64,000 bases of DNA from Bacteroides sp. (GTDB lineage: Bacteria; Bacteroidota; Bacteroidia; Bacteroidales; Bacteroidaceae), in the NCBI GenBank assembly GCA_021203515.1, contig JAJQAY010000083.1, positions 3,665 to 67,664 on the forward strand. The letters run 5' to 3'. Under the pieces are notes generated by a model. It saw nothing but the letters and a program-made list of their open reading frames with translations. It had not been told where the DNA came from and ran no database searches. This document shows, one piece after another, positions 4,436-54,048 of this stretch (position 1 is the stretch's first letter; each line of letters begins with the position of its first letter). Made by a program: the position numbers and the translations under genes.

Positions 4436-4532
4436 ATTAGTTATGAGTTATAAGTGATTAGTTATTTGTTATGGTTGACAAATCATTAACGATTAATCAC
4501 CTATAACTTATAACTTATAACTTATAACTAAC
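4436..4532. repeat. REP-like hairpin element, arms of TTATAAC(T)-type sub-repeats
   Basis: The left arm ...GAGTTATAAGTGATTAG pairs with the right arm ...TAATCACCTATAAC, followed by (TTATAAC)n. It fills the fabG-stop to rluA-start gap exactly (stop 4434, ATG 4534). Confidence 0.75.
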
Positions 4533-5230: not shown

Positions 5231-7768
5231 ATGAAAGGTATTACGATTTTATCGGGCTTGCTCCTCTTTGCAGGACTCACGGCCCGGGCACAAGAGAGAG
5301 TGACCGAATATAACGTGTGTCCTGCCGTTACGGTACGAACACCCATCCAGGGGGACAGTATTAACTTTGTAGGCGATAAGTTTGCCGCGAAAGAACTGCT
5401 GAAGACAAGCATCAACCTCGATTTTGACGGATGCTCCTATGAACGGATGACGGCGGATACGGCCGGATACGTCAGCGTGGCAAAGGCGGATAAGGACAAT
5501 CTGTTCTATCTGTTTGCCACCAACCTGCGTGCAGAACGCTTCATGAAGGGTACGTTGAATGTATATTCTCCCGCCCGTTTCGAAGTATTTGTGAACGGTG
5601 AGTCCAAGCAAATAAAGACGACAGCCGAAGACAGTCTGTCGCAAGTGCGCCCCACTGCCGTCAGCCTGCGCCTGGACCCAGAAGCGGATTATGGGATTGT
5701 TATCAAATTGCTTTCCACTGCCGACGACAAGGCTCAGCCGGTATTGAAGTGCGAGTTTGAGAAAGAGAAGGACTTTGCCGGTGTGGGCTATCAGATGGCG
5801 CCCGACTTGAAGAGACGTTTCTCGTTGTTCAATACGAACTTCGGCAGCCGGGTGCGCTCGGTAGCCCTTTCGCCCGACGGCAAGTACCTGCTGACGTGGT
5901 ACTGGGACAACTATTCGCTGAAACGCTCGAAGACGCATTGCAAACTGACCGAGGTCAAGACCGGCCGCGTGATATTGCCGAATGCCAACGAGAAGATGCG
6001 CTGGATGCCTCGCAGCAATAAGTTGTATTACACCGTGATGGGCGAGCATCAAAATGATTTGGTTGTATTCGACCCCGCAACGATGCGCGAAGAAGTATTG
6101 CTGAAGGACGTTCCCGAAGGTTACTTCACCTGGTCGCCCACGGAAGACTATCTGATTTACTCCTCCCGCGATGAAGGCGAGAAGGTGAACGGCCCGTTGA
6201 AACGCCTCGTGCATCCCGACGACCGTATCCCCGGCTCACGCGGACGCGGCTATCCGGTGAAGTACGATTTGTCGACCGGACTTTCCGAACGCCTGACCTA
6301 CGGTAGTCACGGTGTCTATCTGAACGATATTTCTCCTGACGGCAAGAAGCTGCTGTGCTCTTCCTCCAAATCGAATATCACCAAGTGCCCGTTCTCCCTC
6401 TCTTCCCTGTTCGAGATAGACCTGGCTACTTTGAAGGCGGATACATTGGTGACGTGGGAGCCTTATGCAGGCAGCGGTTCTTATTCTCCCGACGGCAAGC
6501 AACTCTTGCTGACCGGTAGCCCGTCCGCTTTCGGAGGTATCGGCAAGAATTGCGGTGACCATCCCATTGCCAACGATTTCGACACGCAGGCCTTCATTAT
6601 GGACTTGGCTACGAGAAAAGTAGAACCTATCACACGCGATTTCAATCCCAGTGTCGACTTCCTGCAATGGAACCCTGTGGACGGCTGCATCTATTTCAAT
6701 ACGACCGACGAAGACTGCAAGCACATCTACCGCTATACTCCCAAGACCGGGAAGTTTGAAATGCTTCCGCTCAAGGAAGACGTGATTGACTCTTTCTCTC
6801 TGGCAGAAAATAATCCGACGATAGCTGCTTATGTAGGAGGTGGTAACACCAGCACAGGCGTTGCCTATATCTATGACATGAAGAAGAAAGCCTCCACTCT
6901 GCTTGCCAACCCGATGAAGCCCGTATTGGACAAGATAGAACTGGGCACGATGGAAGAGTGGAGCTTTACTGCTGCGGACGGTACGGAGATTAAGGGTATG
7001 ATGTGTCTGCCCCCGGCTTTCGACGCTAATAAGAAATACCCGCTCATTGTTTATTATTATGGCGGAACCACGCCGACGACGCGTGGCATCACTTCACCCT
7101 ATTGCGCTCAGTTGTTTGCTTCACGCGATTATGTAGTCTATGTTATCCAGCCTAGCGGTACTATCGGATACGGACAAGAATTCTCTGCCCGCCATGTCAA
7201 TGCATGGGGCGACTATACGGCTGATAATATAATAGAAGGAACCAAGAAATTCTGTGCGGCTCATCCGTTTGTCAATGAAAAGCGCATCGGCTGCCTGGGT
7301 ACCTCTTATGGTGGCTTCATGACTATGTACTTGCAGACAAAGACCGATATGTTTGCCGCTGCCGCTTCACATGCCGGCATCAGTAACGTGGCCAGCTATT
7401 GGGGCGAGGGCTATTGGGGCTATTCTTATAACGCCGTTGCCGCTGCCGAAAGCTATCCCTGGAACAATCCCGATTTGTTCACCAAGCATGGAGCGCTGTT
7501 CAATGCGGATAAAATCAACACACCTCTGTTGTTGCTGCAAGGTACGGTCGATACGAATGTGCCTCTTGGTGAGAGCATACAGATGTATAATGCGTTGAAG
7601 ATACTGGGCAAGACGGTGGAATATATTCAGGTAGACGGAGAAAATCACTTCATCCTCGATTATCCAAAGCGTGAGCAATGGCAAAACTCCATCATGGCAT
7701 GGTTTGCACGTTGGTTGCAGGATAGTCCGGAATGGTGGAATGACCTTTACCCGGAAAGACATTGGTAA
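5231..7768 (+). CDS. S9 family (prolyl oligopeptidase/DPP-like) serine peptidase with N-terminal beta-propeller
   Basis: Signal peptide, repeated SPDGK propeller motifs, nucleophile elbow GTSYGG, C-terminal alpha/beta hydrolase region. 845 aa. Confidence 0.9.
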   Translation: MKGITILSGLLLFAGLTARAQERVTEYNVCPAVTVRTPIQGDSINFVGDKFAAKELLKTSINLDFDGCSYERMTADTAGYVSVAKADKDNLFYLFATNLRAERFMKGTLNVYSPARFEVFVNGESKQIKTTAEDSLSQVRPTAVSLRLDPEADYGIVIKLLSTADDKAQPVLKCEFEKEKDFAGVGYQMAPDLKRRFSLFNTNFGSRVRSVALSPDGKYLLTWYWDNYSLKRSKTHCKLTEVKTGRVILPNANEKMRWMPRSNKLYYTVMGEHQNDLVVFDPATMREEVLLKDVPEGYFTWSPTEDYLIYSSRDEGEKVNGPLKRLVHPDDRIPGSRGRGYPVKYDLSTGLSERLTYGSHGVYLNDISPDGKKLLCSSSKSNITKCPFSLSSLFEIDLATLKADTLVTWEPYAGSGSYSPDGKQLLLTGSPSAFGGIGKNCGDHPIANDFDTQAFIMDLATRKVEPITRDFNPSVDFLQWNPVDGCIYFNTTDEDCKHIYRYTPKTGKFEMLPLKEDVIDSFSLAENNPTIAAYVGGGNTSTGVAYIYDMKKKASTLLANPMKPVLDKIELGTMEEWSFTAADGTEIKGMMCLPPAFDANKKYPLIVYYYGGTTPTTRGITSPYCAQLFASRDYVVYVIQPSGTIGYGQEFSARHVNAWGDYTADNIIEGTKKFCAAHPFVNEKRIGCLGTSYGGFMTMYLQTKTDMFAAAASHAGISNVASYWGEGYWGYSYNAVAAAESYPWNNPDLFTKHGALFNADKINTPLLLLQGTVDTNVPLGESIQMYNALKILGKTVEYIQVDGENHFILDYPKREQWQNSIMAWFARWLQDSPEWWNDLYPERHW

Positions 7769-7862
7769 AAGTTGAAAGTTGAGAGTTGAAAGTTGAAAGT
7801 TAGCTGCGCTGTATCTGCATAGTAACTTTCAACTTTCAACTTTCAACTCTCAACTTTCAACT
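7769..7862. repeat. REP-like hairpin element, AGTTGAA-heptad arms with loop GCTGCGCT-N-GCATAG
   Basis: (AGTTGAA)x4-5 ... AGCTGCGCTGTATCTGCATAGT ... (TTCAACT)x5. It starts directly after the S9 stop codon. Confidence 0.9.
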
Positions 7863-8255: not shown

Positions 8256-9692
8256 TTACAACTCTATATCGTAGAGTTTGAGCTTGTTGTACAGCGTTTT
8301 CCGGTCGATACCCAGTAATTGTGCAGCACGGCTTTTGTTGTGTCCGGTCTGTTTCAGTGCCTCGATGATTTGCTGCTTCTCCGTTTCCTCATTGCGGAGG
8401 GGCATGCCTGTGTGTACGGGGGCTTGCGCTTGCAGTTCGCTGAGTTCGTCCAGCGTGATAAGTTTGTCCTGAGCCAGCAGGGTGGCGCGTCGGATGATGT
8501 TCTTCATCTGGCGCAGGTTGCCGGGCCATTGGTACTCCAGCAAAGCCCGGGATGCTTTCTCATCAAAGCCGATGAGATGTTTGTCCAGTTCGCGGTTTGC
8601 CTGGTCGAGGAAGAAGTTGGCGAAGAGAAGAATGTCCTCGCGACGGTCTTTCAACTGCGGCATACGCAGGGTGAACTCGTTGATGCGGTGGTAAAGGTCT
8701 TCGCGGAACGCACCTTTTTCGATGGCTTGCTCCAGATTTTCGTTGGTGGCGGATACTAACCGCACATCCACCTGTATCTCTTTGGTAGAACCTACAGGGC
8801 GTATCATCCGCTCCTGCAGGGCACGAAGCAACTGTATCTGCACCTCGTAGCTGAGGTTTCCTATTTCATCCAGAAAGATAGTACCGCCGTTGGCAGCTAC
8901 GAATGCGCCTGTCTTGTCGGTCAGCGCACCCGTAAAAGCACCTTTCACATGACCGAAAAACTCGGAAGCCGCCAGTTCCTTGGGAACGGAACCGCAGTCG
9001 ATGGTAACGAACGGCTGCCCCGCACGACGGCTGAGTTGATGGATGCGATGGGCGACATATTCCTTACCAGTTCCGCTGGCTCCGTTGATGAGCACGGACA
9101 TGTTGGTAGTGGAAACAAGTTTTACATAATTATAAAGCTGCTTGGCGGCGTCGCTCTCTCCTTCGAGGAAATCGGATGAAGGGGATGTGTCTTCTGTGAC
9201 CTTCTGAACTGGATTTTCTTTACTCCCGGAATGCATCATCTGTTTGGGTGAAACGGATGGTCTGTTTGGGGCAGACGCATCATCTGTTTGGGGCGAATGC
9301 ATCATCTGTTTCGATGCTGCGGATGATGTGTTCAACGTCTCAGTCATTTTCTTCAACAACTCATCCGGGTTCACCGGCTTGGCAATGTAATCGCGGGCGC
9401 CCAACTTCATGGCTTGCACGGCAGACTGTATGTCGGCATATCCAGTCATCATGATGAGCGGAATGGACAGGTTTTGCTCTCCCAGCCATTTCAGCAAGTC
9501 GATGCCGTCGCGGTCGGGCAGACGCAAGTCGGACAATATCAAATTTACGTTTTCCGTCTCGATATGTTTCTGCGCACGGGCAATGCTGCTAACGGAACTG
9601 ACCTGGAAACCTTTTTTACCAAGCCACGTTTTTAGCATCATACCATAAGTAATGTCATCTTCTACGATTAATATAGATTTCATTGCCGTCAC
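8256..9692 (-). CDS. Sigma-54-dependent Fis-family response regulator (NtrC/AtoC type), orphan
   Basis: REC domain (ILIVEDD...LILSDLRLPDRDG), AAA+ Walker A GASGTGKE, GAFTGA loop, C-terminal HTH NKSRAAQLLGIDRKTLYNKLK. No adjacent histidine kinase. Confidence 0.92.
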   Translation of the reverse strand: MTAMKSILIVEDDITYGMMLKTWLGKKGFQVSSVSSIARAQKHIETENVNLILSDLRLPDRDGIDLLKWLGEQNLSIPLIMMTGYADIQSAVQAMKLGARDYIAKPVNPDELLKKMTETLNTSSAASKQMMHSPQTDDASAPNRPSVSPKQMMHSGSKENPVQKVTEDTSPSSDFLEGESDAAKQLYNYVKLVSTTNMSVLINGASGTGKEYVAHRIHQLSRRAGQPFVTIDCGSVPKELAASEFFGHVKGAFTGALTDKTGAFVAANGGTIFLDEIGNLSYEVQIQLLRALQERMIRPVGSTKEIQVDVRLVSATNENLEQAIEKGAFREDLYHRINEFTLRMPQLKDRREDILLFANFFLDQANRELDKHLIGFDEKASRALLEYQWPGNLRQMKNIIRRATLLAQDKLITLDELSELQAQAPVHTGMPLRNEETEKQQIIEALKQTGHNKSRAAQLLGIDRKTLYNKLKLYDIEL

Positions 9693-10616: not shown

Positions 10617-10693
10617 GTCATTCAGAGCGAAGCGAAGAATCTACTCCCTGCATTTATCAAGGAGAATAGATTCTTCGCTTCGCTCTGAATGAC
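10617..10693. repeat. Perfect 27-bp inverted repeat hairpin (GTCATTCAGAGCGAAGCGAAGAATCTA)
   Basis: Arms are 10617-10643 and 10667-10693, exact reverse complements. The loop has an additional CTCC/GGAG pairing. No T-run follows. Confidence 0.9.
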
Positions 10694-10710
10694 GGACACT
10701 CCGATTGGAT

Positions 10711-11971
10711 ATGAAGATAAATAAATTAACCCTGAGCAACGGTTTGCGGCTAGTGCACAACGAAGACACCAGCACGCAAATGGTGGCATTGAATATAGTC
10801 TATGACGTCGGTGCATGCGACGAACATCCCGAGCATACCGGCTTTGCCCATCTGTTCGAGCATCTGATGTTCGGCGGTTCGGTGCATATCCCCGATTATG
10901 ACACTCCTTTGCAACTGGCAGGAGGAGAGAACAATGCGTGGACGAATAATGATATAACCAATTATTATCTGACAGTGCCGAAGCCGAATGTGGAAACCGG
11001 CTTCTGGTTGGAGTCCGACCGTATGCTGGAACTGGCGTTCGACGAACAAAGCCTCGAAGTGCAGCGCGGGGTCGTCATGGAGGAGTTCAAGCAGCGTTGC
11101 CTGAACCAACCTTACGGTGACGTGGGGCATTTGCTTCGCCCGCTTGCCTATCAGGTGCATCCCTATCGTTGGCCCACTATCGGAAAGGAACTGTCGCACA
11201 TCGAGCAGGCAACGCTGGACGAGGTGAAGGACTTCTTCTTTAGCCACTATGCGCCCAACAATGCCGTGCTTGCTGTCACCGGAAACATTTCGTGGGAAGA
11301 AACGATCAGGCTGACCGAGAAGTGGTTTGCACCTATTCCCCGCAGGGATGTTCCCCGCAAGGCGGTTGCCGCAAGAACCGGAGCAGACGGCGGAACGGCG
11401 GTTGGAGGTGGAACGCAATGTTCCGTTGGATGCCTTGTTTATGGCTTACCACATGTGCAATCGCGAGGATGCCGATTATTATGCGTTCGATATCCTGTCG
11501 GATGTACTGAGTAACGGACGTTCCAGTAGGTTAAGCCGTCGGTTGGTGTAGGAGCAGAAGGTCTTTTCCAGTATCGATGCCTACGTCAGCGGTACGCGCG
11601 ATGCCGGATTGCTGCATGTCAGCGGTAAGCCGGCGGCAGGTGTGTCGTTGGAGCAGGCGGAGAGTGCTGTCCGCCGGGAATTGGAGGAATTGCGGCAGTC
11701 GCTTGTGGGTGAACAAGAACTGGAGAAAGTGAAGAATAAATTCGAGTCCACTCAAATATTCGGCAATATCAATTACTTGAATGTAGCTACCAACCTCGCC
11801 TGGTTCGAACTGACGGGACAGGCTGAGGATATCGACCTCGAAGTGGAACGTTATCGGGCGGTGACGGCGGAGCAGTTGCAGGCGGTGGCGCAGCAGGCGC
11901 TCCGGGAGGAGAATGGGGTGGTGTTGTATTATAAGAAGTTGAAAGTTGAAAGTTGCTATGCAGTGTCATAG
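10711..11971 (+). pseudogene. M16 family zinc peptidase, disrupted by one frameshift and one in-frame TAG
   Basis: HxxEH motif HTGFAHLFEHLMF. The frame shifts at the C-run 11353-11356. An in-frame TAG at 11549-11551 (RRLV*EQKVF) sits where Gln is expected. The last 12 codons and the stop lie inside a hairpin element. Confidence 0.85.
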
Positions 11972-12010
11972 CGCAGCTTAATTTTCAATTTTCAACTTTC
12001 AACTTTCAAC
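11937..12010. repeat. REP-like hairpin element (AGTTGAA heptad class) overlapping the M16 gene 3' end
   Basis: AGTTGAAAGTTGAAAGTTGCTATGCAGTGTCATAGCGCAGCTTAATTTTCAATTTTCAACTTTCAACTTTCAAC. The loop is related to the 7769-7862 element in the opposite orientation. Confidence 0.9.
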
Positions 12011-12021
12011 TCTTTAGAATT

Positions 12022-13355
12022 ATGAGTAACTCTTTCAAACATACGGTAGACATTACAAGCCCTGTTTCTTTTAGGGCTTCCCATCGTCATAGGTCAGCTT
12101 GGCGTCATTATCCTCGGCTTTGCAGATACCCTAATGATAGGGCATCATAGCACTGCCGAGCTTGGTGCGGCATCTTTCGTAAATAATCTGTTTACCCTTT
12201 GCATCATATTCAGCACAGGCTTCAGCTACAGACTGACACCTATCGTGGGCAGTCTTTACGGCAACCGCCGCTTTGCCGAAGCGGGGCAGGCGTTGCGGTG
12301 CAGTCTGGTGGCGAATGTGCTCGTAGCTCTGCTCCTGACGCTAATCATGGGCATTGTTTACTTCTTCGTAGAACACTTGGGGCAGCCGAAAGAACTGATC
12401 CCGCTGATAAAGCCCTACTTCCTCGTACTCTTGGCTTCGCTCGTGTTCGTCATGCTGTTCAACGGTTTCAAGCAATTCACGGACGGCATCACCGATACCC
12501 AAACCGCTATGTGGATTTTGCTCGGAGGAACGCACTTAACATCGTAGGAAACTATATTCTCATCAACGGAAAACTGGGACTTCCCGAGATGGGACTGCTC
12601 GGTGCGGGTGTCAGTACACTGTTTTCACGCATCGTTATGGTGATTGTCTTTGCGATGATTGTGCTGCGCAGTCGCCGTTTCTTGCGTTACCGGGTAGGCT
12701 TTTCCCGTATGGGCTGGTCATCTGCTCTGTTCGGGCGACTCAATTCCTTAGGCTGGCCCGTCGGGTTACAGATGGGAATGGAGACTGCATCGTTCAGTCT
12801 CAGCACGATTATGGTGGGCTGGCTAGGCACTCTCGCGTTGGCGTCCCACCAGATTATGCTGACTATCTCCCAATTCACCTTTATGATGTTCTATGGCATG
12901 GGAGCGGCAGTAGCCGTGCGTGTCAGTAACTTCAAGGGGCAGGGCGACCGGGAGAATGTGCGCCGTTCGGCTTACGCAGGTTTTCATCTGATACTGGCGA
13001 TGGAAGTGGTGTTGCTGAGCATCGTCTTTGCCCTGCGCGGCCAGGTGGGCGGATGGTTTACGGACAGCGCGGAAGTTTCCGGCATGGTAGCCGCCCTGTT
13101 TTTCCTTTCCTTATATACCAGTTCGGCGACGGGTTGCGAATCAACTTTGCCAATGCCCTGCGCGGTATCTCCGATGTAAATCCGATGATGATAATCGCCT
13201 TCATATCCTATTTTGTTATATCTTTGCCCGTAGGATACTTCTGTGGCTTCGTGATGGGTTGGGGCTTGACGGGCGTCTGGATGGCTTCCCCTTTCGGACT
13301 GACAAGTGCCGGACTGATGCTGTGGTTGCGGTTCAGATATAAGACTAAAGGATAA
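12022..13355 (+). pseudogene. MATE family efflux transporter, at least 3 frameshifts
   Basis: Fragments 12022-12150, 12134-12547, 12199-13179 and 13053-13355 concatenate into one MATE protein (LPIVIGQLGVIILGFADTLMIGHHS ... ANALRGISDV). Shifts are near 12040-12060, 12525-12533 (AA/AAA) and 13099-13106. Confidence 0.85.
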
Positions 13356-13368: not shown

Positions 13369-15681
13369 GTGAACAACGTCTCCAAACTAAAGATAGCCGT
13401 CGGCTTCACCTTGTTGCTGGCAGCCTTATTCTTTTCCCTGTTCTTCGTGCACCGGGAAATGGAGAACCTTATGCAGTCCGACGACCTGGATGTGCAGTGG
13501 ACGGACAGCCTAATTTCCCTTCTTCGCGAGAAAGACACCAACACCATCAACATGCTGCGTACACTGAGCGAAGCGAACGACACGATGGTGTCCACCCGCG
13601 AACTGGAGAACATCATTGCCGCCCAGCCGGATACGATTGTTCCACGGAAGCGTGTTCAGCACCGTGTAATCGAGCATCGCGATACGGTAGTAACCAAGCC
13701 CCGAAAGCGCGGCTTCTTCCGCCGCCTGGGCGAAGTCTTTGTTCCCCCGAAGAAAGACACCGCCATTCAGGTGACTACCTCCCTTGAGTTTGTCACGGAT
13801 ACGGTGATTGATCCGTATAATCCGGTAGACTCCATGCAAGAAAAGCTGCGTGCTGTGGCGCAACAGAAGAAGAGCAATACCGTGGTGCAACGTCGCAAGC
13901 GTACCACGCTGCAACGCATGGACCAACTGCTGACTGCCCGCATCGACAGCCTGCTGAAAGGCTATGAACAGGAGACGTTGCAACACGCCCGAGAAGAAGC
14001 CGAGTATCAGCAGTCCGTGCGCCATCGCTCCATCCGCATCATCAGCGGCATTGCCGTGGGCGCCGTATTGCTTTCCGCTCTGTTCCTCCTGCTTATCGGA
14101 CGCGATATAGCCCGTAGCAACCGCTATCGGCGCCAATTGGAAGAAGCCCGCCGCCGTGCCGAAGACCTGCTTGCCACGCGCGAGAAGCTAATGCTCGCCA
14201 TCACCCATGACTTCAAAGCACCGCTCGGCTCCATCATGGGTTGTGCCGACCTGCTCTCCCGCCTGACGGTGGACGAACGGCAACGTTTCTATCTGGATAA
14301 TATGAAGACCTCTTCGGAACACCTGCTGAAGCTCGTCGTCGACCTGCTAGATTTCCACCGACTCGACCTCCATAAGGCAGAAGTGAACCGCGTCACCTTC
14401 CATCCCTCGCGCTTGCTAGAAGAAATCTACGTCAGCTTCGAACCGCTTACTTCCGCCAAAGGACTGGCATTGCATTGCAACATCGCCCCCGAACTGAGCG
14501 ATACCTTTATTTGTGACCCGTTACGTCTGCGGCAGATTATCAACAACCTGCTGTCCAATGCCGTGAAGTTCACCGCCGAAGGCAGCATTACGCTGACGGC
14601 ACGCTATGAAGACCGCCATCTCCTCGTCTCGATAGCCGACACCGGCAAGGGTATGGAACCTGCCGACCGCGAACGCATCTTCCAAGAGTTCACCCGCCTG
14701 CCGGGGGCGCAGGGCGAAGAAGGTTTCGGCTTGGGACTCTCCATCGTCCGCATGTTGGTGCAACTGCTCGAAGGTACTATCGAGGTGGAAAGTGAACCAG
14801 GGAAGGGTAGTACCTTCACTGTCCGCATCCCCATCTACCCCGTAAGAGAGTTGAAAGTTGAAAGTGGAAAGTTGAAAGTTACGATGCCGGAGGGTGCCGT
14901 TGCAGATGCTAATGACCGCTTTCAACTTTCAACTTTCAACTTTCAACTAAATAAGGTTCTTCTCATCGACGATGACCGCATCCAACTGACGCTGACCTCC
15001 GCCATGCTCTCGCAGAGCGGTATCACTTCCGTCTGCTGCCTGCAAATGGATGAACTGCTGGACGCCCTGCGCACCGACACTTTCGATGTGCTCCTCACCG
15101 ACGTGCAAATGCCCGCTATCAACGGCTTCGACCTCTTGAAGCTGCTTCGTGCCTCCAATATCCCCCAAGCGCAGACTATTCCGGTGATAGCCGTTACCGC
15201 CCGCAGCGACATGAAGCCCGAAGAGTTCGTGGCACATGGTTTCTCCGGTTGCCTCCACAAGCCCTTTACGGTGGCCGAACTGCTTGGAGAGTTGAATGTG
15301 GAAAGTGAAGAACTGAAGGTTGCTATGCAGGAAGATGCCGTTGCGGATGCCAAACCTTCAACTCTCAACTTCTCCGCCCTCACCGCCTTCTCCGGCGACG
15401 ACGCAGAAGCCGCCCGTTCTATTCTTGAAAGCTTCGTTTCCGAAACCCGCCTGAATGCCGACCGTCTGCGGCAGGCTATGGAAACTGAAGACGCGGAAGG
15501 CGTGGCAGCCGTTGCCCACAAAATGATTCCTCTTTTTACGTTGATTGGCGCCCCAGAACTCGTCGCCCTGTTGCGGACACTCGAATCGCAGCGCGGTGCG
15601 GCATTTACGGAAGCGATAAAGGAGACTGCACTTTCATCTCTGGCTTTAATAACGGATGTGGTAAATCAAGCTATTCCATGA
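13369..15681 (+). CDS. Hybrid sensor histidine kinase/response regulator (HisKA-HATPase-REC-Hpt)
   Basis: H-box ITHDFKAPL, N-box LLSNAVKFT, G-boxes DTGKGM and GFGLGLSIV, REC VLLIDDD...LLTDVQMPAINGF, Hpt AHKMIP. GTG start. Confidence 0.92.
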   Translation: MNNVSKLKIAVGFTLLLAALFFSLFFVHREMENLMQSDDLDVQWTDSLISLLREKDTNTINMLRTLSEANDTMVSTRELENIIAAQPDTIVPRKRVQHRVIEHRDTVVTKPRKRGFFRRLGEVFVPPKKDTAIQVTTSLEFVTDTVIDPYNPVDSMQEKLRAVAQQKKSNTVVQRRKRTTLQRMDQLLTARIDSLLKGYEQETLQHAREEAEYQQSVRHRSIRIISGIAVGAVLLSALFLLLIGRDIARSNRYRRQLEEARRRAEDLLATREKLMLAITHDFKAPLGSIMGCADLLSRLTVDERQRFYLDNMKTSSEHLLKLVVDLLDFHRLDLHKAEVNRVTFHPSRLLEEIYVSFEPLTSAKGLALHCNIAPELSDTFICDPLRLRQIINNLLSNAVKFTAEGSITLTARYEDRHLLVSIADTGKGMEPADRERIFQEFTRLPGAQGEEGFGLGLSIVRMLVQLLEGTIEVESEPGKGSTFTVRIPIYPVRELKVESGKLKVTMPEGAVADANDRFQLSTFNFQLNKVLLIDDDRIQLTLTSAMLSQSGITSVCCLQMDELLDALRTDTFDVLLTDVQMPAINGFDLLKLLRASNIPQAQTIPVIAVTARSDMKPEEFVAHGFSGCLHKPFTVAELLGELNVESEELKVAMQEDAVADAKPSTLNFSALTAFSGDDAEAARSILESFVSETRLNADRLRQAMETEDAEGVAAVAHKMIPLFTLIGAPELVALLRTLESQRGAAFTEAIKETALSSLALITDVVNQAIP
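14848..14948. repeat. Hairpin element (AGTTGAA class) inserted in frame in the kinase HATPase-REC linker
   Basis: GAGTTGAAAGTTGAAAGTgGAAAGTTGAAAGTT...CTTTCAACTTTCAACTTTCAACTTTCAACT, translated ELKVESGKLKVTMPEGAVADANDRFQLSTFNFQL. Confidence 0.9.
15289..15372. repeat. Degenerate second hairpin element in frame in the kinase REC-Hpt linker
   Basis: GAGTTGAATGTGGAAAGTGAAGAACTGAAGGTTGCTATGCAGGAAGATGCCGTTGCGGATGCC...CCTTCAACTCTCAACTTC, translated ELNVESEELKVAMQEDAVADAKPSTLNF. The loop is homologous to the 14848-14948 copy. Confidence 0.8.
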
Positions 15682-30780: not shown

Positions 30781-30933
30781 TTTTCCTCGGTGGGGAACGC
30801 CAGTTTCCCCGGTGAGAAACGCTCGTTTCCTCGGTGGGGAACGACCGTTCCCACGATAGGAAACGCGAGTTCCCATTAGGGGAAACTGTCGTTCCCATTA
30901 GGGGAACGAGCGTTTCCATCAGAGGAAACGGGC
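30781..30933. repeat. Seven tandem 22-bp units, each a GTTTCC-N6-7-GGAAAC dyad
   Basis: Units start at 30781, 30803, 30825, 30847, 30869, 30891 (21 bp) and 30912. The consensus is GTTTCCnnnGnTGGGGAAACGnnC. TTTCC and GGAAA half-sites alternate about every 11 bp. Confidence 0.9.
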
Positions 30934-31028
30934 GCCCTCTCCTGAAAGTACGAAGTAAAGAATGCCTTCCTTTCTAAATTATACCTAATTTATTGTATAT
31001 GAATGTATGTGCGAACAAACAAAATTAG

Positions 31029-31084: not shown

Positions 31085-32608
31085 ATGTCTGAAACTAAAA
31101 GAATTAAAACAGCTCTGGTATCCGTTTACCATAAAGAAGGTTTGGACGAAATCATTACCAAACTGCATGAAGAAGGAGTAGAATTCATGTCGACCGGTGG
31201 AACCCGTCAGTTTATCGAATCCTTAGGCTATCCCTGCAAGGCAGTGGAAGACCTCACTACCTACCCTTCCATTTTAGGTGGACGCGTCAAGACCCTGCAT
31301 CCGAAGATATTCGGTGGTGTTCTTTGCCGTCGCGGATTGGAGCAAGACATGCAACAGATAGAGAAATATGAAATTCCCGAAATAGACCTCGTCATCGTCG
31401 ATTTGTATCCCTTTGAAGCAACCGTTGCCAGTGGTGCCGAGGAACCTGCTATCATCGAGAAGATTGATATAGGCGGCATCTCCCTGATACGTGCCGCTGC
31501 CAAGAATTACAACGACGTGGTTATCATTGCTTCGCAAGGACAATACCAGCCCTTCCGCGATATGCTGATGGAGCACGGCGCCGTTACTTCGCTCGAAGAA
31601 CGCCGTTGGTTTGCCAAAGAGGCTTTTGCCGTTTCTTCCCACTACGACTCGGCCATCTTCAACTATTTCGATGGAGAAGAAGGCTCGGCATTCCGCCAGT
31701 CGGCCAATAATCAGAAGACGTTGCGCTATGGCGAGAACCCGCATCAGAAGGGTTACTTCTACGGTAACATCGATGCCATGTTCGACCAAATCCACGGGAA
31801 GGAAATCTCCTACAACAGCCTGCTCGACATCAATGCGGCGGTCGACCTGATAGACGAATTTACGGATACCACGTTTGCTATCCTGAAACATAATAACGCT
31901 TGCGGGCTGGCTTCGCGCCCCACTGTGCTGGAGGCATGGAACGATGCACTTGCCGGTGACCCGGTTTCGGCTTTCGGCGGTGTGCTCATCACCAATGCCG
32001 TGATTGACAAAGAAGCGGCCGAGGAAATCAACAAGATATTCTTTGAAGTTATCATCGCTCCCGACTATGATGTGGATGCGCTGGAAATTCTCGGTCAGAA
32101 GAAGAACCGCATTATCCTGGTGCGCAAAGAGGCCTCTCTGCCCAAGAAGCAGTTCCGCTCTTTGCTGAACGGTGTGCTGGTGCAAGACCGTGACCTCAAG
32201 GTGGAGACTCCCGAAGACTTGAAGACGGTGACCACTAAAGAACCTACCGCACAGGAGATTGAAGATATGCTGTTCGCCAACAAGATTGTGAAGAACAGCA
32301 AGTCCAATGCCATCGTACTGGCCAAGGGCAAGCAACTGCTGGCAAGCGGTGTCGGTCAGACGAGCCGTGTGGATGCACTGAAGCAAGCCATCGAGAAAGC
32401 CCGGAACTTCGGTTTCGACCTGAACGGGGCGGTCATGGCAAGCGATGCTTTCTTCCCCTTCCCCGATTGTGTGGAGATTGCGGACAAGGAAGGTGTCAAA
32501 GCAGTTATTCAGCCGGGTAGCAGCATCAAAAACCAACTCTCGTTCGACTATTGCAACGAGCATGGCATCGCGATGGTGATTACCGGTTTCCGTCATTTCA
32601 AACACTAA
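31085..32608 (+). CDS. purH: Bifunctional AICAR formyltransferase / IMP cyclohydrolase PurH
   Basis: 507 aa. The MGS-like N-terminus (ALVSVYHKEGL) and conserved LRYGENPHQ and IQPGSSIK blocks support the call. Confidence 0.95.
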   Translation: MSETKRIKTALVSVYHKEGLDEIITKLHEEGVEFMSTGGTRQFIESLGYPCKAVEDLTTYPSILGGRVKTLHPKIFGGVLCRRGLEQDMQQIEKYEIPEIDLVIVDLYPFEATVASGAEEPAIIEKIDIGGISLIRAAAKNYNDVVIIASQGQYQPFRDMLMEHGAVTSLEERRWFAKEAFAVSSHYDSAIFNYFDGEEGSAFRQSANNQKTLRYGENPHQKGYFYGNIDAMFDQIHGKEISYNSLLDINAAVDLIDEFTDTTFAILKHNNACGLASRPTVLEAWNDALAGDPVSAFGGVLITNAVIDKEAAEEINKIFFEVIIAPDYDVDALEILGQKKNRIILVRKEASLPKKQFRSLLNGVLVQDRDLKVETPEDLKTVTTKEPTAQEIEDMLFANKIVKNSKSNAIVLAKGKQLLASGVGQTSRVDALKQAIEKARNFGFDLNGAVMASDAFFPFPDCVEIADKEGVKAVIQPGSSIKNQLSFDYCNEHGIAMVITGFRHFKH

Positions 32609-32720: not shown

Positions 32721-33743
32721 ATGGGATTATTCTCTTTTACACAAGGGATAGCGATGGACCTTGGCACAGCCAATACCATCATCACAACAAACGGTAAGAT
32801 TGTGGTGGATGAACCTTCGGTAGTGGCGTTGGACCGTCGTACAGACAAGATGATTGCCGTGGGCGAGAAGGCAAAGCTGATGCACGAAAAGACCCACGAA
32901 AATATACGTACCATCCATCCCCTGCGCGACGGCGTGATTGCCGACTTCTATGCTTGCGAGCAGATGATACGCGGACTTATCAAGATGGTGAACAATCGCA
33001 ACCGGTTGTTCTCTCCTTCACTCCGCATGGTAATCGGCGTTCCGTCGGGAAGCACCGAAGTAGAACTTCGTGCCGTGCGCGACTCTGCCGAACATGCAGG
33101 CGGACGTGACGTTTATCTGATTTTCGAACCGATGGCCGCCGCTATCGGTATCGGCATCGATGTAGAGGCACCGGAAGGCAACATGATTGTCGATATAGGT
33201 GGTGGCTCTACGGAAATCGCCGTTATCTCCCTGGGAGGTATTGTCAGCAACAACTCCATCCGCATTGCCGGCAACGACTTGACTGCCGACATCCAGGAAT
33301 ACATGAGCCGCCAACACAATGTGAAGGTCAGCGAACGTATGGCAGAGCGTATCAAGATTAATGTAGGTGCGGCCCTGACCGAACTTGGCGAGGATGCTCC
33401 CGAAGACTATATCGTTCATGGTCCGAACCGCATCACGGCCTTGCCGATGGAAGTGCCCGTATGCTATCAGGAAGTGGCACACTGTCTGGAGAAGTCCATC
33501 TCCAAGATTGAAACCGCCACCCTGAGTGCATTGGAGAATACGCCTCCCGAACTGTATGCCGACATCGTGCACAACGGTATCTACCTGGCCGGTGGCGGTG
33601 CTTTGCTTCGTGGACTCGACAAACGTCTGACTGATAAAATAAACATACCGTTCCACATTGCGGAAGACCCCTTGCATGCCGTTGCCAAAGGTGCCGGCGT
33701 TGCGCTGAAGAACGTTGACCGCTTCTCATTCCTGATGAGATAA
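32721..33743 (+). CDS. mreB: Rod shape-determining protein MreB
   Basis: Actin-fold motifs DLGTANT and VDIGGGSTE. 340 aa. Confidence 0.96.
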   Translation: MGLFSFTQGIAMDLGTANTIITTNGKIVVDEPSVVALDRRTDKMIAVGEKAKLMHEKTHENIRTIHPLRDGVIADFYACEQMIRGLIKMVNNRNRLFSPSLRMVIGVPSGSTEVELRAVRDSAEHAGGRDVYLIFEPMAAAIGIGIDVEAPEGNMIVDIGGGSTEIAVISLGGIVSNNSIRIAGNDLTADIQEYMSRQHNVKVSERMAERIKINVGAALTELGEDAPEDYIVHGPNRITALPMEVPVCYQEVAHCLEKSISKIETATLSALENTPPELYADIVHNGIYLAGGGALLRGLDKRLTDKINIPFHIAEDPLHAVAKGAGVALKNVDRFSFLMR

Positions 33744-34590: not shown

Positions 34591-34623
34591 ACGGAAGTTG
34601 TCAATTGTCAATTCTAAAGAAGA

Positions 34624-35136
34624 ATGGTTATCAATTATTTGCATAAGATAGGGTGGTTTATCGGTTTGGTACTGTTGCAGGTGCTGATACTGAACAATGT
34701 GCATATGGCCGGGTATGCCACTCCATTTCTATATATCTACCTGATATTGAAGTTTGAGTCGGACGTATCGCGCAATGCTTTGATGTTGTGGGCGTTCTTC
34801 CTCGGACTGACGGTCGATATATTTTCGGATACTCCGGGAATGAATGCGGCGGCTATCGTGCTGCTGGCTTTCGTGCGGCCTACTTTCCTGCGCTTGTTTA
34901 CTCCCCGCGATACACCGGATATGTTGGCACCCGCCGCCCGTACGATTGGATTTTCTTCTTTCTTGAAATATTTGATAATCTGTGTTTTGGTACACCACGG
35001 CATACTACTTACTATTGAATTCTTTTCTTTTGCCAACATCGGAGTATTGTTACTCAGGATTGTGGCAAGTTCATTGCTGACGGTGGTCTGCATTATGGCG
35101 ATAGAGGGAATTCGGAAGAAGCAACCGCCCTTGTAA
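34624..35136 (+). CDS. mreD: Rod shape-determining protein MreD
   Basis: 170-aa polytopic membrane protein in the mreC-mrdA position. Confidence 0.8.
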   Translation: MVINYLHKIGWFIGLVLLQVLILNNVHMAGYATPFLYIYLILKFESDVSRNALMLWAFFLGLTVDIFSDTPGMNAAAIVLLAFVRPTFLRLFTPRDTPDMLAPAARTIGFSSFLKYLIICVLVHHGILLTIEFFSFANIGVLLLRIVASSLLTVVCIMAIEGIRKKQPPL

Positions 35137-35159
35137 TTAGTAATTTGTAATTAGTAATT
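35134..35159. repeat. Direct repeat of the near-palindromic 12-mer TAATTAGTAATT (x2)
   Basis: Copies are at 35134-35145 and 35148-35159. They overlap the mreD stop, in the short mreD-mrdA spacer. Confidence 0.6.
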
Positions 35160-35173
35160 CGTATTTTTCTTAA

Positions 35174-37039
35174 ATGAAAGACTATACACTGGAGAAACGA
35201 AAATATGTGATAGGCATGGCGGCTGTCGTCATTGTCCTCATTTATGCGCTTCGACTGTTCGACTTGCAAATCATGACGGATGATTACAAGAAGAATGCAG
35301 ACAGTAATGCCTTCCTGAATAAGATACAATACCCTTTGCGCGGAGCCATTTACGACCGCACTGGCAAGTTGCTGGTGTTCAATCAGCCGGCCTATGATAT
35401 AACTTTTGTCCCGCGTGAGGTGACGCAACTTGATACGCTGGACTTCTGCCGGGCGCTGAACATCACCCACGAACAGTTCCAGAAGCGAATGAAGGACGTG
35501 AGGAACCGCTGGATGAATCCCGGTTATTCCAAATACACGCATCAGGTATTCATGACGCAACTCTCTGCCGAGGAGTGCGGGGTGTTTCAGGAAAAGCTGT
35601 TCAAGTTTCCTGGTTTCTATATTCAGCGGCGTATCATCCGGCAATATACTTATAATTCTGCGGCCCATACGTTGGGTGATATTGGCGAAGTTTCCAAGAA
35701 AGATATTGAAGCGGATAACTATTATATTCGCGGTGACTATATCGGAATGCAGGGCATCGAGAAATCTTACGAGAAATACCTGCGTGGAGAAAAGGGCGTA
35801 GAGATTTTGCTTCGCGATGCGCACGGGCGTATTCAGGGGCATTATATGGATGGAAAGCTCGACCGTCCTTCCGTGCCCGGCAAGAACCTGACTTTAGGGA
35901 TAGACATCGAATTGCAAAGACTGGGCGAACGCTTGTTGCAACATAAGATTGGAGCGATTGTCGCCATCGAGCCTGCTACGGGCGAAATACTTTGCATGGT
36001 TTCTTCACCGACTTTTGACCCTCACCTGATGATTGGCCGCCAACGTGGAAAAAACCACCGGATGCTGCAAATGGATAAACGGAAACCTTTGCTGAACCGG
36101 GCAATCATGGGTGCTTATCCGCCAGGGTCGACTTTCAAGACGGCGCAGGCGCTGACGTTCTTGCAGGAAGAGATTATTCACGAAGATTATCCTGCTTTTC
36201 CTTGTGCGCACGGCTTCAACTATGGTAGTTTGCACGTGGGATGTCACGGACATGCTTCTCCTTTGCCTTTAGTACCGGCAATCGCTACTTCCTGCAACTC
36301 TTACTTCTGTTGGGGATTGTTCAGGATGTTCAGCGATAAGAAATACGGTTCCCCTCAGAATGCCATTACCGTATGGAAGGATCACATGGTGTCGCAGGGG
36401 TTCGGCTATCGTCTGGGTACGGACCTTCCCGGCGAGCAGCGCGGACTAATCCCGAATGCGAAGTTCTATGATAAAGCCTATCGCGGCTCCTGGAACGGAC
36501 TGACGGTTATCAGTATAGCCATCGGCCAGGGCGAAATTCTGGCTACTCCTTTGCAGATAGCCAATCTGGGGGCGACCATTGCCAACCGGGGGCATTTCAT
36601 TACTCCGCACATCGTGAAGGAAATACAAGATAACGAACTGGATAGCATCTACCGGACTCCGCGCTATCCCACCATCGACCGCGAATATTACGAGGAAGTG
36701 GTGAAAGGTATGCGTGCAGCCGTCACCGGAAGTACGGGTAGTGCTACTTGCCGCATGGTCGGTGCTATGTTGTCGGGCGTGGAAGCCTGCGGTAAGACGG
36801 GTACGGCGCAAAATCGCGGAAAAGACCACTCTGTCTTTATGGGCTTTGCACCGATGGACAATCCCAAGATTGCCATCGCAGTCTATGTGGAGAATGGCGG
36901 CTTTGGCGCTACTTATGGAGTACCTATCGGTGCTATGATGATGGATCAGTATTTACACGGAAAACTATCTCCCGAAAATGAGATACGGGCGGAAGAGTTT
37001 AGTAACCGCGTTATATTGTATGGTGACGAAGAGAGATAA
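35174..37039 (+). CDS. mrdA: Penicillin-binding protein 2 (elongasome transpeptidase)
   Basis: SxxK (PGSTFKT), SxN (TSCNSYF) and KTG (GKTGTAQ) motifs. 621 aa, in the mre/rodA cluster. Confidence 0.93.
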   Translation: MKDYTLEKRKYVIGMAAVVIVLIYALRLFDLQIMTDDYKKNADSNAFLNKIQYPLRGAIYDRTGKLLVFNQPAYDITFVPREVTQLDTLDFCRALNITHEQFQKRMKDVRNRWMNPGYSKYTHQVFMTQLSAEECGVFQEKLFKFPGFYIQRRIIRQYTYNSAAHTLGDIGEVSKKDIEADNYYIRGDYIGMQGIEKSYEKYLRGEKGVEILLRDAHGRIQGHYMDGKLDRPSVPGKNLTLGIDIELQRLGERLLQHKIGAIVAIEPATGEILCMVSSPTFDPHLMIGRQRGKNHRMLQMDKRKPLLNRAIMGAYPPGSTFKTAQALTFLQEEIIHEDYPAFPCAHGFNYGSLHVGCHGHASPLPLVPAIATSCNSYFCWGLFRMFSDKKYGSPQNAITVWKDHMVSQGFGYRLGTDLPGEQRGLIPNAKFYDKAYRGSWNGLTVISIAIGQGEILATPLQIANLGATIANRGHFITPHIVKEIQDNELDSIYRTPRYPTIDREYYEEVVKGMRAAVTGSTGSATCRMVGAMLSGVEACGKTGTAQNRGKDHSVFMGFAPMDNPKIAIAVYVENGGFGATYGVPIGAMMMDQYLHGKLSPENEIRAEEFSNRVILYGDEER

Positions 37040-37041: not shown

Positions 37042-37117
37042 ATTAAGGTATTAGGTATTAACTATGCAGATTGCAGCCGCACCTAATACTTAATATCTAA
37101 TACTTAATACTTAATAA
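37042..37117. repeat. REP-like hairpin element, arms of TAATAC(T)/GGTATTA sub-repeats with loop CTATGCAG...AGCCGCA
   Basis: ATTAAGGTATTAGGTATTAA-CTATGCAGATTGCAGCCGC-ACCTAATACTTAATATCTAATACTTAATACTTAATAA. The loop resembles that of the AGTTGAA-class elements. Confidence 0.85.
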
Positions 37118-37130: not shown

Positions 37131-38588
37131 GTGACGAGAAGAGGTAGTATATGGAAATCATTGGATTGGGTGACGATTGTCGTTTACCTGATGCTGATTA
37201 CTTTTGGCTGGTTTAGCGTGTGCGGGGCAAGTTATGATTATAGCGACCGCGATTTCCTTGATTTCTCTACCCGTGCGGGTAAGCAGTTTGTGTGGATAAT
37301 CTGCTCCTTTGGGCTAGGCTTTGTGTTGCTGATGCTGGAGGATACGCTGTATGACATGTTTGCATACCTTATATATATAGGGTTGATGCTGCTGCTCATT
37401 GTCACGATATTCATAGCTCCCGATACGAAAGGGTCGCGTTCGTGGCTGATACTGGGGCCGGTCAGTTTGCAGCCGGCGGAGTTTGCCAAGTTTGCAACGG
37501 CACTGGCGCTTGCCAAGTATATGAGTGCCTACTCCTTCACCATGAAAAACTGGAAGCATGCGGCAGCGCTGGTTTTCTTTATATTGTTTCCCATGATGCT
37601 GATTATTCTTCAGCGGGAGACGGGGTCTGCATTGGTATATACGGCTTTCTTCCTGATGCTTTATCGCGAAGGCATGCCCGGCGTGGTACTCTTCTCCGGA
37701 CTTTGCGCGGTGGTTTATTTCGTGGTAGGCATTCGCTTCGACCAGGTGTTTATTGCGGATACTCCGACGCCTATCGGAGAGTTTGCCGTGTTGTCGATGG
37801 TATTGCTCTTTGCCGGCGGCATGGTGTGGGTGTATAAGAAGAAATGGCAACCGGTATGGCATATCATAGGCGGCTCGTGTGTGGTGTTGCTGATTGCTTA
37901 TCTTATATCGGAATATATCACTCCTTTCAATCTTATATGGGTGCAGTGGGGATTGTGCGTGGTTGTAGTATGCTACTTATTCATTCTTTCTCTGAGCGAG
38001 CGCCATATCAGCTATTTCCTGATAGGATTGTTTGCAATCGGTTCGATAGGTTTTCTCTATTCCAGTGATTACTTCTTTAACAAGGTGTTGGAACCTCACC
38101 AGCAGATACGTATCAAGGTGGTGCTCGGCATGGAAGAAGACCTTGCAGGGGCGGGGTATAATGTCAATCAGTCGAAGATAGCTATAGGCTCCGGCGGACT
38201 GACGGGAAAAGGCTTCCTGAACGGTACACAAACCAAGTTGAAATATGTGCCCGAACAGGATACGGACTTTATCTTCTGTACGGTGGGTGAAGAAGAAGGA
38301 TTTGTGGGCTCTACGGCAGTGTTGTTCTTGTTTCTCGTTCTGATACTTCGGCTGATAGTGTTGGCAGAGCGCCAGCAGTCTGCATTCGGGAGGGTGTATG
38401 GGTATTCGGTGCTAAGCATCTTCCTGTTCCATCTGTTTATCAATATCGGGATGGTGCTGGGCTTGACGCCCGTAATCGGTATTCCGTTGCCTTTCTTCAG
38501 TTACGGAGGCTCTTCGTTGTGGGGCTTCACGATTTTGCTGTTTATCTTTCTGCGTATCGATGCGGGGAGAAACAGGAGATTGGTGTAG
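37131..38588 (+). CDS. rodA: Rod shape-determining protein RodA (SEDS family)
   Basis: 485-aa polytopic protein with the conserved C-terminal block GLTPVIGIPLPFFSYGGSS. GTG start. Confidence 0.92.
   Translation: MTRRGSIWKSLDWVTIVVYLMLITFGWFSVCGASYDYSDRDFLDFSTRAGKQFVWIICSFGLGFVLLMLEDTLYDMFAYLIYIGLMLLLIVTIFIAPDTKGSRSWLILGPVSLQPAEFAKFATALALAKYMSAYSFTMKNWKHAAALVFFILFPMMLIILQRETGSALVYTAFFLMLYREGMPGVVLFSGLCAVVYFVVGIRFDQVFIADTPTPIGEFAVLSMVLLFAGGMVWVYKKKWQPVWHIIGGSCVVLLIAYLISEYITPFNLIWVQWGLCVVVVCYLFILSLSERHISYFLIGLFAIGSIGFLYSSDYFFNKVLEPHQQIRIKVVLGMEEDLAGAGYNVNQSKIAIGSGGLTGKGFLNGTQTKLKYVPEQDTDFIFCTVGEEEGFVGSTAVLFLFLVLILRLIVLAERQQSAFGRVYGYSVLSIFLFHLFINIGMVLGLTPVIGIPLPFFSYGGSSLWGFTILLFIFLRIDAGRNRRLV

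Positions 38589-52425: not shown

Positions 52426-54048
<1,623 letters not shown>

Follow-up and report, generated by a model that had tools for sequence, protein, structure and literature searches.

Rickettsia is the textbook case of selfish palindromes becoming part of proteins. The Rickettsia palindromic elements (RPEs), reportedly described by Ogata et al. in 2000, are short palindromic repeats that occur between genes as well as in frame within protein-coding genes, where they are translated as an extra peptide at positions compatible with the fold, in copies at various stages of decay. We analysed 64,000 nucleotides of DNA from Bacteroides sp. (contig JAJQAY010000083.1 of assembly GCA_021203515.1, positions 3,665 to 67,664; hereafter the window, in whose numbering positions are given unless another locus is named). 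In it, a hairpin repeat with arms of tandem 7-nt units lies both between genes and, twice, in frame within the gene for a hybrid sensor histidine kinase. With a rough probability of 0.72, we read it as a Bacteroides repeat resembling repetitive extragenic palindromic (REP) sequences and MITEs (miniature inverted-repeat transposable elements), which is non-coding by niche and is translated as a passenger linker in genes.

Like RPEs, the same repeat occurs between genes and in frame in unrelated open reading frames (ORFs), those of the kinase, an FAD-dependent oxidoreductase, 6-phosphogluconate dehydrogenase (Gnd) and the small subunit of carbamoyl-phosphate synthase (CarA). The inserts lie at linkers or in segments that a homolog lacks, and the host domains are intact as judged by Pfam, the solved homolog 3NLC and a weak structural model. 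Unlike here, RPE arms are not tandem heptads. RPEs are also open in the inserted frame by design, whereas the present class stops all three frames, so that one stop must go. Finally, the present class sits overwhelmingly at gene 3′ ends, and its coding sites swap unit type while keeping position and length, which is unlike RPEs. The likeness to RPEs had been drawn in an earlier note made from the window sequence alone; it holds as an analogy and extends to the further in-frame copies in the FAD oxidoreductase, Gnd and CarA, homology being unlikely given the organism, the composition and the heptad-arm architecture.

REP, bacterial interspersed mosaic element (BIME) and REPIN (REP doublet forming a hairpin) sequences are, as is the present class, abundant extragenic hairpins at gene 3′ ends and within operons (PMC3116915, PMC3337134, PMC3733652), and they likewise form genome-specific families that are largely inherited vertically and evolve within the genome. 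In REPs, however, a conserved stem with a GTAG or CGTC tag encloses a variable spacer, whereas in the present class the stem is variable and 7-nt periodic and the conserved part, where there is one, is the loop. Neither tag was found in the arms (AGTTGAA, AGTTGAG, GAATGAA, CAATTGA and others), and the same loop occurs with differing stems. No REP-associated tyrosine transposase (RAYT) turned up in the 64-kb window and the short loci, in which no search aimed at RAYT was made.

Bacterial MITEs, very many of which were recorded in Bacteroidota by a 2024 census (PMC11602168), resemble the present class in being small inverted-repeat elements that are non-autonomous, lie mostly between genes, abound in Bacteroidota and are for the most part genus-specific (PMC11602168). 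Also MITE-like is the pairing of the same arms with differing internal sequence (121 copies with 78 loops, among the matches listed), which fits terminal inverted repeats with variable cargo. The text of this cMITE census mentions neither heptad arms nor in-frame or coding copies (PMC11602168).

Two other systems have translated palindromes. The mitochondrial coding palindromes of Nematomorpha are long inverted repeats within genes with both arms translated, as here, but they are unique to their gene, without a dispersed intergenic family or tandem-unit arms, and belong to another type of genome and another taxon (PMC6649704). Palindromic amphipathic repeat coding elements (PARCELs), too, are translated palindromic repeats spread over unrelated genes (PMC2996958). 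They are, however, arrayed in tandem within surface-protein genes of Mollicutes and other microbes, with a distribution that suggests horizontal spread of a coding module, and are not 3′-end hairpins that occasionally land in genes (PMC2996958). The earlier note knew of no equivalent description for Bacteroides. Searches with the exact DNA strings, with the peptides, and with Bacteroides combined with REP, RAYT, MITE and in-frame terms likewise returned no description of the class in the searchable literature. The new features are the stop-carrying heptad arms, the strict hugging of stop codons and the swaps of unit type at fixed coding sites.

Two in-frame repeats fill the linkers of a sensor kinase

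The host gene and the features within it are as follows.

13369 to 15681, + strand: hybrid sensor histidine kinase ORF, 770 aa, with HisKA, HATPase_c, receiver and histidine phosphotransfer (Hpt) domains (ORF list, Pfam)
14849 to 14948, + strand: copy 1, in-frame heptad hairpin, which reads ELKVESGKLKVTMPEGAVADANDRFQLSTFNFQL and fills the HATPase-to-receiver linker (repeat search, folding)
14866 to 14868, + strand: GGA codon, where consensus unit 3 would put an in-frame TGA (AGTTGAA to AGTgGAA; frame arithmetic)
15287 to 15372, + strand: copy 2, degenerate in-frame relative of copy 1, which reads ELNVESEELKVAMQEDAVADAKPSTLNF and fills the receiver-to-Hpt linker

Pfam places HisKA at residues 271-333, HATPase_c at 383-489, Response_reg at 530-641 and Hpt at 685-749. 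Copy 1 accounts for residues 494-527, in the interval that separates the end of HATPase_c from the first strand of the receiver, and copy 2 encodes residues 641-668, in the linker between receiver and Hpt. The sequences, coordinates and translations of both copies that the earlier note gave are right. Its proposal of dispersed palindromic repeats in frame at the kinase domain boundaries is borne out by these Pfam boundaries and by the match to the intergenic copies at 7768-7862 and 11936-12011.

Copy 1 has a left arm at 14849-14878 (its AGTTGAA units run on to 14880), a 40-nt loop at 14879-14918 and a right arm at 14919-14948. The arms, of 30 nt each, are 97% complementary and hold 4.3-4.6 tandem AGTTGAA / TTCAACT units. 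The RNA is predicted to fold at -46.7 kcal/mol (+ strand) and -42.7 kcal/mol (- strand), with z of -7.9 and -8.5, and none of 200 dinucleotide shuffles folds equally well, so that the lack of significance against shuffled controls that the earlier note had named as a possible objection is not seen. The 14-mer AGTTGAAAGTTGAA, allowing up to one mismatch, occurs 19 times in the window (0.04 expected), the matches lying at 7770-7862, 11937-12011, 14849-14948, 15357-15370 and 52939-52952.

The hairpin of copy 2, on the other hand, is not significant alone (z -1.5 and -2.3; 15 and 6 of 200 shuffles are as good), and the claim that both copies are palindromic thus stands for copy 1 only. Copy 2 is 79% identical to copy 1 over 67 nt. 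The ungapped score between them is 39, against a shuffle-null mean of 7.1 and maximum of 15, and the loops by themselves score 19, against a null maximum of 14 (2000 shuffles). By this comparison, copy 2 is clearly recognisable as a homolog of copy 1, loop included. Copy 1 has pristine arms around a diverged loop, and the diverged loop is common to it and the decayed copy 2.

Because 7 equals 1 modulo 3 and the unit contains TGA, three or more AGTTGAA units stop every frame in the 5′ arm, on either strand. In the left arm of copy 1 the TGAs of units 1, 2 and 4 are out of frame and unit 3 (14863-14869) alone is in frame. Unit 3 is also the sole off-consensus unit of copy 1, and its change to AGTgGAA gives GGA and removes the sole in-frame TGA, as the earlier note had argued and frame arithmetic confirms; the arms carry stops in both other frames. 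Reading across the inserts would give peptides such as ELRVESGEWTMQHDSAANSQLSTLNSQLN.

A protein 100% identical over its 770 aa is encoded in an NCBI Bacteroides metagenome-assembled genome (MAG) and in independent Logan assemblies (P0001, P0002), and the in-frame state is therefore not peculiar to the present assembly. In an AlphaFold2 model of the kinase, residues 492-525 are coil with pLDDT below 50 and residues 645-663 are of low confidence, the inserts being the least confident parts of a model that is itself weak (mean pLDDT 57.5).

In-frame copies in other enzymes

A third in-frame copy lies elsewhere in the window.

52871 to 52957, - strand: in-frame copy in the FAD-dependent oxidoreductase ORF 52426-54075, with AGTTGAA/AGTTGAG units (z -6.6 and -8.9)

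This copy reads EELKVESGELPCGVLAQPNSQLSTLNSQLN and has an AGTgGA unit at the in-frame position and the canonical core loop of the class (see below). Residues 363-396 of the enzyme (34 unaligned) are unmatched in 3NLC, a solved homolog from Vibrio with only 9 residues at that place; judged from this alignment, the FAD insert is a net insertion of ~25 aa inside the PF21688 domain. Beyond the window, an in-frame element in a gut Gnd reads SGKLKVESGKLSDNAQLSTFNFQLS (14 loci among the matches listed; L102 2876-2945), and CarA (L119 ~1100-1600) has the element-derived segments ENGKLKVENEEQNNFQPSTFNFQLSTLHSPL, NLQLSTFNFQL and HSQLSTFNFQLK, one of the three inside the CPSase_sm_chain domain. The FAD, Gnd and CarA copies lie within single domains. 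Insertion at domain boundaries, as the earlier note had it, therefore describes the kinase copies but not those of the FAD oxidoreductase and CarA, which are inside Pfam domains.

In all four AGTTGAA-type coding copies the in-frame TGA is replaced by GGA; the AGT-GGA solution of copy 1 recurs in the FAD copy, the Gnd copy and the kinase ortholog of L024. Among the matches listed, AGTGGA is found anywhere in 16 of 76 non-coding copies, so pre-existing variants may have been selected, with no new mutation awaited. The selection signature that the earlier note had seen is thus present in that four of four coding copies are fixed in frame, but the variant itself may predate arrival in the gene. 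Selection is still needed to explain AGTgGA at the in-frame unit in all four. Other solutions occur as well: the GAATGAA-type copy in the B. rodentium kinase has GAAcGAA precisely at its in-frame TGA, and L081 and L007 have TTA in place of it.

The number of units varies. The Gnd cluster (at least 90% identity, 1340 members) is dimorphic: one form has 497 aa and the other 490, the difference being TFNFQLS, equal to three right-arm units (P0242-P0256); one FAD lineage is 7 aa shorter in the right arm, and another lacks 17 central residues. These cases show that unit number changes by slippage, and in genes steps of three units (21 nt, 7 aa) alone are seen.

A phmmer search with the 36-aa FAD insert against 1.84 billion representative proteins gave one match, to a eukaryotic NACHT-LRR protein, which we reject as a chance match, and a word-indexed protein search with the copy 1 peptide at 40 aa gave zero candidates. 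Since the peptide searches yielded no candidates, the host range of in-frame copies is drawn from DNA.

The repeat normally follows stop codons

At least eight hairpins in the window have arms of tandem 7-nt units, and the unit differs between copies. The layout of the class is two inverted arms of such units around a centre of 14-60 nt, which frequently holds a motif with the consensus GCTGCGCTATCATGCTGCATAG in either orientation (the core loop). In 1.55 Mb of collected Bacteroides DNA, 18 of 20 distinct occurrences of GCTGCGCTATCATGCTGCATAG have inverted heptad arms, of at least five unit types. Conversely, the 78 different loops of the 121 AGTTGAA-armed metagenome copies carry the motif in about one-fifth of cases, among the matches listed. 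Arms and centres therefore combine freely. Two intergenic copies of the AGTTGAA type lie in the window.

7768 to 7862, no strand assigned: intergenic copy with loop GCTGCGCTGTATCTGCATAG, beginning immediately past the S9 peptidase stop codon (gene 5231-7768; z -11.1)
11936 to 12011, no strand assigned: copy at the M16 peptidase gene's 3′ end, whose core loop is oriented the opposite way (z -6.1)

The last fragment of the M16 peptidase (11609-11971) runs through the left arm of the second of these and terminates in the loop, so that its last ~11 residues are element-encoded.

A metagenome scan that required two perfect units on each arm returned at least 120 loci, mostly on human-gut contigs. 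Among the matches listed there are 80 distinct elements, of which a read-through test assigned 76 as non-coding and 4 as coding; a classifier of ORF context placed 3 inside a long ORF. Where ORFs lie on both sides (52 copies, among the matches listed), the flanking ends are 3′|3′ in 18, 3′|5′ in 16, 5′|3′ in 17 and 5′|5′ in 1, that is, 18 are between convergent, 33 between co-directional and 1 between divergent genes. The distance from stop codon to element has a median of 6 nt and is at most 20 nt in 68 of 87 cases, and in 19 cases the ORF ends on a TGA inside the element arm (both among the matches listed). The class is thus shown to lie normally 0-20 nt downstream of stop codons, and it has the extragenic 3′-end bias of REPs.

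Compared between species, orthologous spacers hold the element, lack it or have another occupant. The spacer 3′ of the S9 peptidase gene holds the 94-nt element in the window, is 24 nt in B. rodentium and is an unrelated 52 nt in B. fluxus. Between adh_short and rluA there are 12 nt in B. fluxus, a 92-nt hairpin of ATTAATG units in B. rodentium and a 97-nt hairpin of AGTTATA units in the window, the inner stem of which is still like the B. rodentium units.

These hairpins do not have the marks of intrinsic (Rho-independent) terminators. Their stems are A+T-rich and no T tract follows, several copies stand between co-directional genes set close together, and a separate canonical terminator lies downstream of the copy at 7768-7862. 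Oriented non-coding copies have no sense-strand bias in fold energy (25 versus 26, p 0.26; among the matches listed) and thus offer no evidence that the element matters as transcript rather than as DNA.

Occupants of the same coding site change between species

About 55 syntenic kinase orthologs, which keep the order MatE-kinase-TamB-Omp85, were recovered and placed on a rough neighbour-joining tree. Deep-branch orthologs (Mediterranea, Caecibacteroides and several Bacteroides MAGs; 54-70% identity) have the fused HisKA-HATPase-receiver-Hpt arrangement with unrelated linkers of 13-37 aa, which are rich in P, T, E and A and give inverted-repeat scores of 3-8 (shuffle mean 4.9, 99th percentile 8). 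The earlier note had proposed that the same linker peptide in distant orthologs lacking the DNA symmetry would speak against a repeat; the distant linkers are instead unrelated.

In crown Bacteroides, linker 1 takes one of three forms. At least 10 species, among them B. rodentium, B. oleiciplenus, L005, L007, L009, L049, L054 and L056, have a hairpin of the GAATGAA type, its core loop oriented either way; three (the window, L024 and B. stercorirosoris) have one of the AGTTGAA/G type; and in B. clarus, B. stercoris, B. gallinarum and B. fluxus the sequence is decayed or unrecognisable. The nearest relatives of the window (L003, L004, L021 and L035) also have a linker 1 that is decayed or unrecognisable. 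The clean indels that the earlier note had asked about were not seen, then, as deep branches have their own linkers and the crown has other heptads at the same spot. Linker 1 measures 32-36 aa with the element and 13-37 aa without it. Since the linker is no longer with the element than without, the 'insertion' into the kinase is really a replacement; with length alike in either case, there is no clean empty site, and linker 1 has long been occupied, by a changing occupant.

Counterparts of copy 2 occur as a partial element in L004 and as clearer elements in linker 2 of L017, L019 and L020, which makes copy 2 old. In the B. stercorirosoris kinase (L019 4498-4590 and 4927-5028), both linkers share a near-identical 50-nt stretch, GGAGAGTTGAGAGTGGAGAGTTCTGTGCAGCATGATRGCGCAGCC, whereas linker 1 of the sister L020 is unrelated and lacks it. 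The shared stretch suggests copying within the gene.

Two side observations concern these orthologs. The tandem repeat VEKTVEHTMEKTVEKTMEKTLEKEE in linker 1 of the L003 kinase (P0112) is of 7 aa (21 nt) and lacks a hairpin partner; it may be a one-armed expansion. In the draft of B. rodentium JCM 16496 (L058), the kinase frame is broken at about residue 397, away from the element; it is intact in the B. rodentium assembly L001, and the break is probably a sequencing error.

At the FAD site, all orthologs at 87-91% protein identity share an anchor-to-anchor distance (RPED to FQE) of exactly 108 nt and a core loop in one orientation. In the window the left arm has AGTTGAA and the right arm CTCAACT, AGTTGAG's complement; L081 has GAATGAA (-48.6 kcal/mol), B. 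intestinalis (L082) has GAGTGGA / AACTCTC and L084 has CAATTGA, whereas the arms are decayed in L083; the ortholog hairpins fold at -39 to -51 kcal/mol. Hence, at one orthologous site the heptad type differs between species, with the site and length kept. The flanks are 0.47-0.56 identical at third codon positions; identity in the arms varies between 0.15 and 0.94 without following the flanks, the right arms of the window and L082 copies being 0.94 identical. The left arm in B. intestinalis has a T-to-G change in four of five units where one suffices, which indicates homogenisation within the arm. The B. rodentium kinase insert EERRMKNEELPCGVTAQPDSSFFIPHSSLK and the L081 FAD insert EELRMKNEELPCGVIAQPDSSFFIPHSSLN encode nearly the same 30 residues, so the same subfamily is present in different genes. 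Taken as sequence comparisons, these observations point to both copying between loci and in-place evolution of the arrays, with neither shown to dominate.

A proposed passenger linker and its alternatives

We propose that a hairpin repeat whose usual niche is the first few nucleotides past a stop codon occasionally lands in, or gets copied into, permissive coding positions, such as interdomain linkers and a segment that a solved homolog lacks. In genes, copies are seen to survive only if their length is a multiple of 3 and their single in-frame TGA is replaced. In the kinase, the copies would then be translated as spacers of ~30 aa between HATPase, receiver and Hpt. The spacers are presumably disordered and the peptide itself would have no specific function, the element being passenger DNA tolerated as a linker; many orthologs have allowed it to decay, which makes a specific use for the peptide improbable. 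Turnover may proceed by gene-conversion-like copying between dispersed copies, by in-place homogenisation of variant units, or by both. Copy 1 could thus be the recently renewed occupant of linker 1, and copy 2 an old, decaying occupant of linker 2.

Several observations weigh against this reading. No transposase, target-site duplication or autonomous parent was found in the collected loci, so that the distribution alone speaks for mobility. The longest flanking direct repeats are distributed as in a shifted control, and 58 of 76 copies have none (among the matches listed), although unequal numbers of units on the two arms blur where an element ends. Pairs of AGTTGAA and TTCAACT arms at a distance of 150-5000 nt, as expected of an autonomous or composite parent, are absent from 1.5 Mb of loci, a limited and biased sample. 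The linker lengths given above do not differ with the presence of the element. In several lineages the same coding site still holds perfect hairpins, and the arms of copy 1 are pristine around a loop that has diverged and is shared with decayed copy 2; perfect stems and pristine arms exceed simple neutral decay and hint at active maintenance or a function at the nucleic-acid level. Finally, the metagenome sample is enriched in well-preserved AGTTGAA arms by the way it was scanned, its gene contexts were called from ORFs of at least 120 aa rather than from annotation, and the kinase model is poor overall (pTM 0.29).

The strongest alternative, which we consider unlikely, takes up this hint, and holds that the in-gene hairpins are selected as nucleic acid. 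They could act as a ribosome pause that aids co-translational folding, as an RNase or attenuation site that uncouples the kinase core from receiver and Hpt, or as a slippage switch in which one heptad more or fewer would bring the built-in TGAs into frame and cut the protein short exactly between domains. Near-perfect hairpins are indeed maintained or renewed at one coding site across several species although synonymous sites are near saturation, the 0.94 identity of the window and L082 right arms contrasts with 0.47-0.56 at third positions of the flanks, and copy 1 pairs perfect arms with a diverged loop; unit-number slippage is real, and the arms stop both other frames. However, the hairpin has decayed in B. 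clarus, B. stercoris, B. gallinarum and L083 while the gene is intact, and with many such orthologs the hairpin is dispensable. Non-coding copies lack a sense-strand fold bias, no frameshifted alleles were seen at the arrays, and 4-5 units are short for a contingency locus.

A bolder version, to which we give slightly less credence still, has an active process rewrite or homogenise the stems, keeping the site and often the 22-nt loop motif, even inside essential genes. On this view, the 7- and 10-nt periods with their stop codon would serve at gene ends as a translational stop designed to act in three frames and in both directions, and the copies in genes would in addition be slippage points able to truncate proteins between domains. 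Stop codons occur in 12 of 21 non-AGTTGAA heptad types, against ~33% expected for a random 7-mer (an estimate from base composition); many of the units are interrelated and not independent evidence, and the enrichment is no more than suggestive.

That fusion of separate kinase, receiver and Hpt genes trapped 3′-end hairpins at the junctions would explain why a class normally at gene ends has both its kinase copies at domain junctions, but it is very improbable and is contradicted by the orthologs at 54-70% identity, which are already fused with element-free linkers, as well as by the FAD, Gnd and CarA copies inside single domains.

The two weakest explanations are barely credible. A native linker into which nothing was inserted, with the repeat resemblance and symmetry due to chance or to amino-acid repeats, would account for a linker of comparable length at both sites in every ortholog and for the outer ends of copy 2 (GAGTTGAA... 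and ...CAACTTC), which partly coincide with conserved ELN and NF, but it is contradicted by the unit-for-unit match of copy 1 to the intergenic copies (19 versus 0.04 expected), its z of about -8, the unrelated deep-branch linkers at the inverted-repeat background, and the same repeat in unrelated enzymes. Mis-joining of a repeat into the gene in a MAG would be in keeping with the origin of the window and with the broken M16 peptidase and MatE genes just upstream, but it is contradicted by the identical 770-aa product in independent Logan assemblies, with the frame intact on both sides, and by isolate orthologs with equivalent in-frame hairpins (B. rodentium, B. oleiciplenus and B. stercorirosoris).

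If the repeat is indeed a passenger linker, the process known from Rickettsia also operates in a dominant gut genus, in hosts that include a two-component kinase and central enzymes (Gnd, CarA and the FAD oxidoreductase), and with an element class that would normally end translation in every frame yet sits inside genes. Its copies would be a natural experiment on the tolerance of interdomain linkers and other permissive sites to foreign peptide, and a source of protein length variation in steps of 7 aa. They also carry a warning for annotation and homology searches, as 30-aa segments of the ELKVES...FNFQL type are repeat DNA and not protein motifs. Should it hold genome-wide, the turnover of heptad type at coding sites that stay fixed would offer an unusually clean system for the study of concerted evolution or gene conversion of very short bacterial repeats.

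Other repeats and neighbouring genes in the window

Further members of the class with other units, and solo arrays, are listed here.

4439 to 4529, no strand assigned: hairpin of AGTTATA/AGTTATG units, lying past the adh_short stop codon and ahead of the rluA start codon
32610 to 32718, no strand assigned: hairpin of AGATTTC / ATAAATC units, between the co-directional genes 31085-32608 and 32721-33743
37046 to 37116, no strand assigned: hairpin of AGGTATT / TAATACT units with a core-like loop, between the genes 35174-37039 and 37131-38588
34596 to 34618 and 35131 to 35166: solo heptad arrays

Hairpins with 10-nt units of the AACGCAGATT or ACACAGATTA type lie at 45920-45960, 47868-47938 and 51652-51734. 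Their period is 1 modulo 3, like 7, with TAA at each unit junction, and they likewise stop every frame. A PD-(D/E)XK nuclease ORF of the GxxExxY type (133 aa, 54081-54482, - strand; PF13366, E 7e-45) is flanked by inverted arms of 10-nt tandem units, CACAGATTAA / TTAATCTGTG, and the locus (54050-54530) looks like a cargo-carrying version of the ORF-less 10-nt-unit hairpins.

In Rfam searches of the window at gathering thresholds tRNA alone passes, and at permissive E-values (4-16 kb) generic miRNA-precursor hairpin models appear, far under thresholds. The arm pattern gave 0 matches in viral contigs.

Just upstream of the kinase gene, the M16 peptidase (10705-11971) and MatE (12134-13355) genes are each broken into several overlapping ORFs. 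Both are whole in B. rodentium (411 and 447 aa), and their splitting in the window is caused by frameshifts or MAG errors. Period-22 tandem repeats, of 3-4.6 copies with 70-82% matches, lie at 9233-9311, 30782-30934 and 48970-49033. Another type of hairpin repeat (GTCATTCAGAGCGAAGCGAAGAATC and its inverted partner) directly follows a gene end at 10617-10693, and the same type is present at the orthologous position in B. cutis (L021 319-390).

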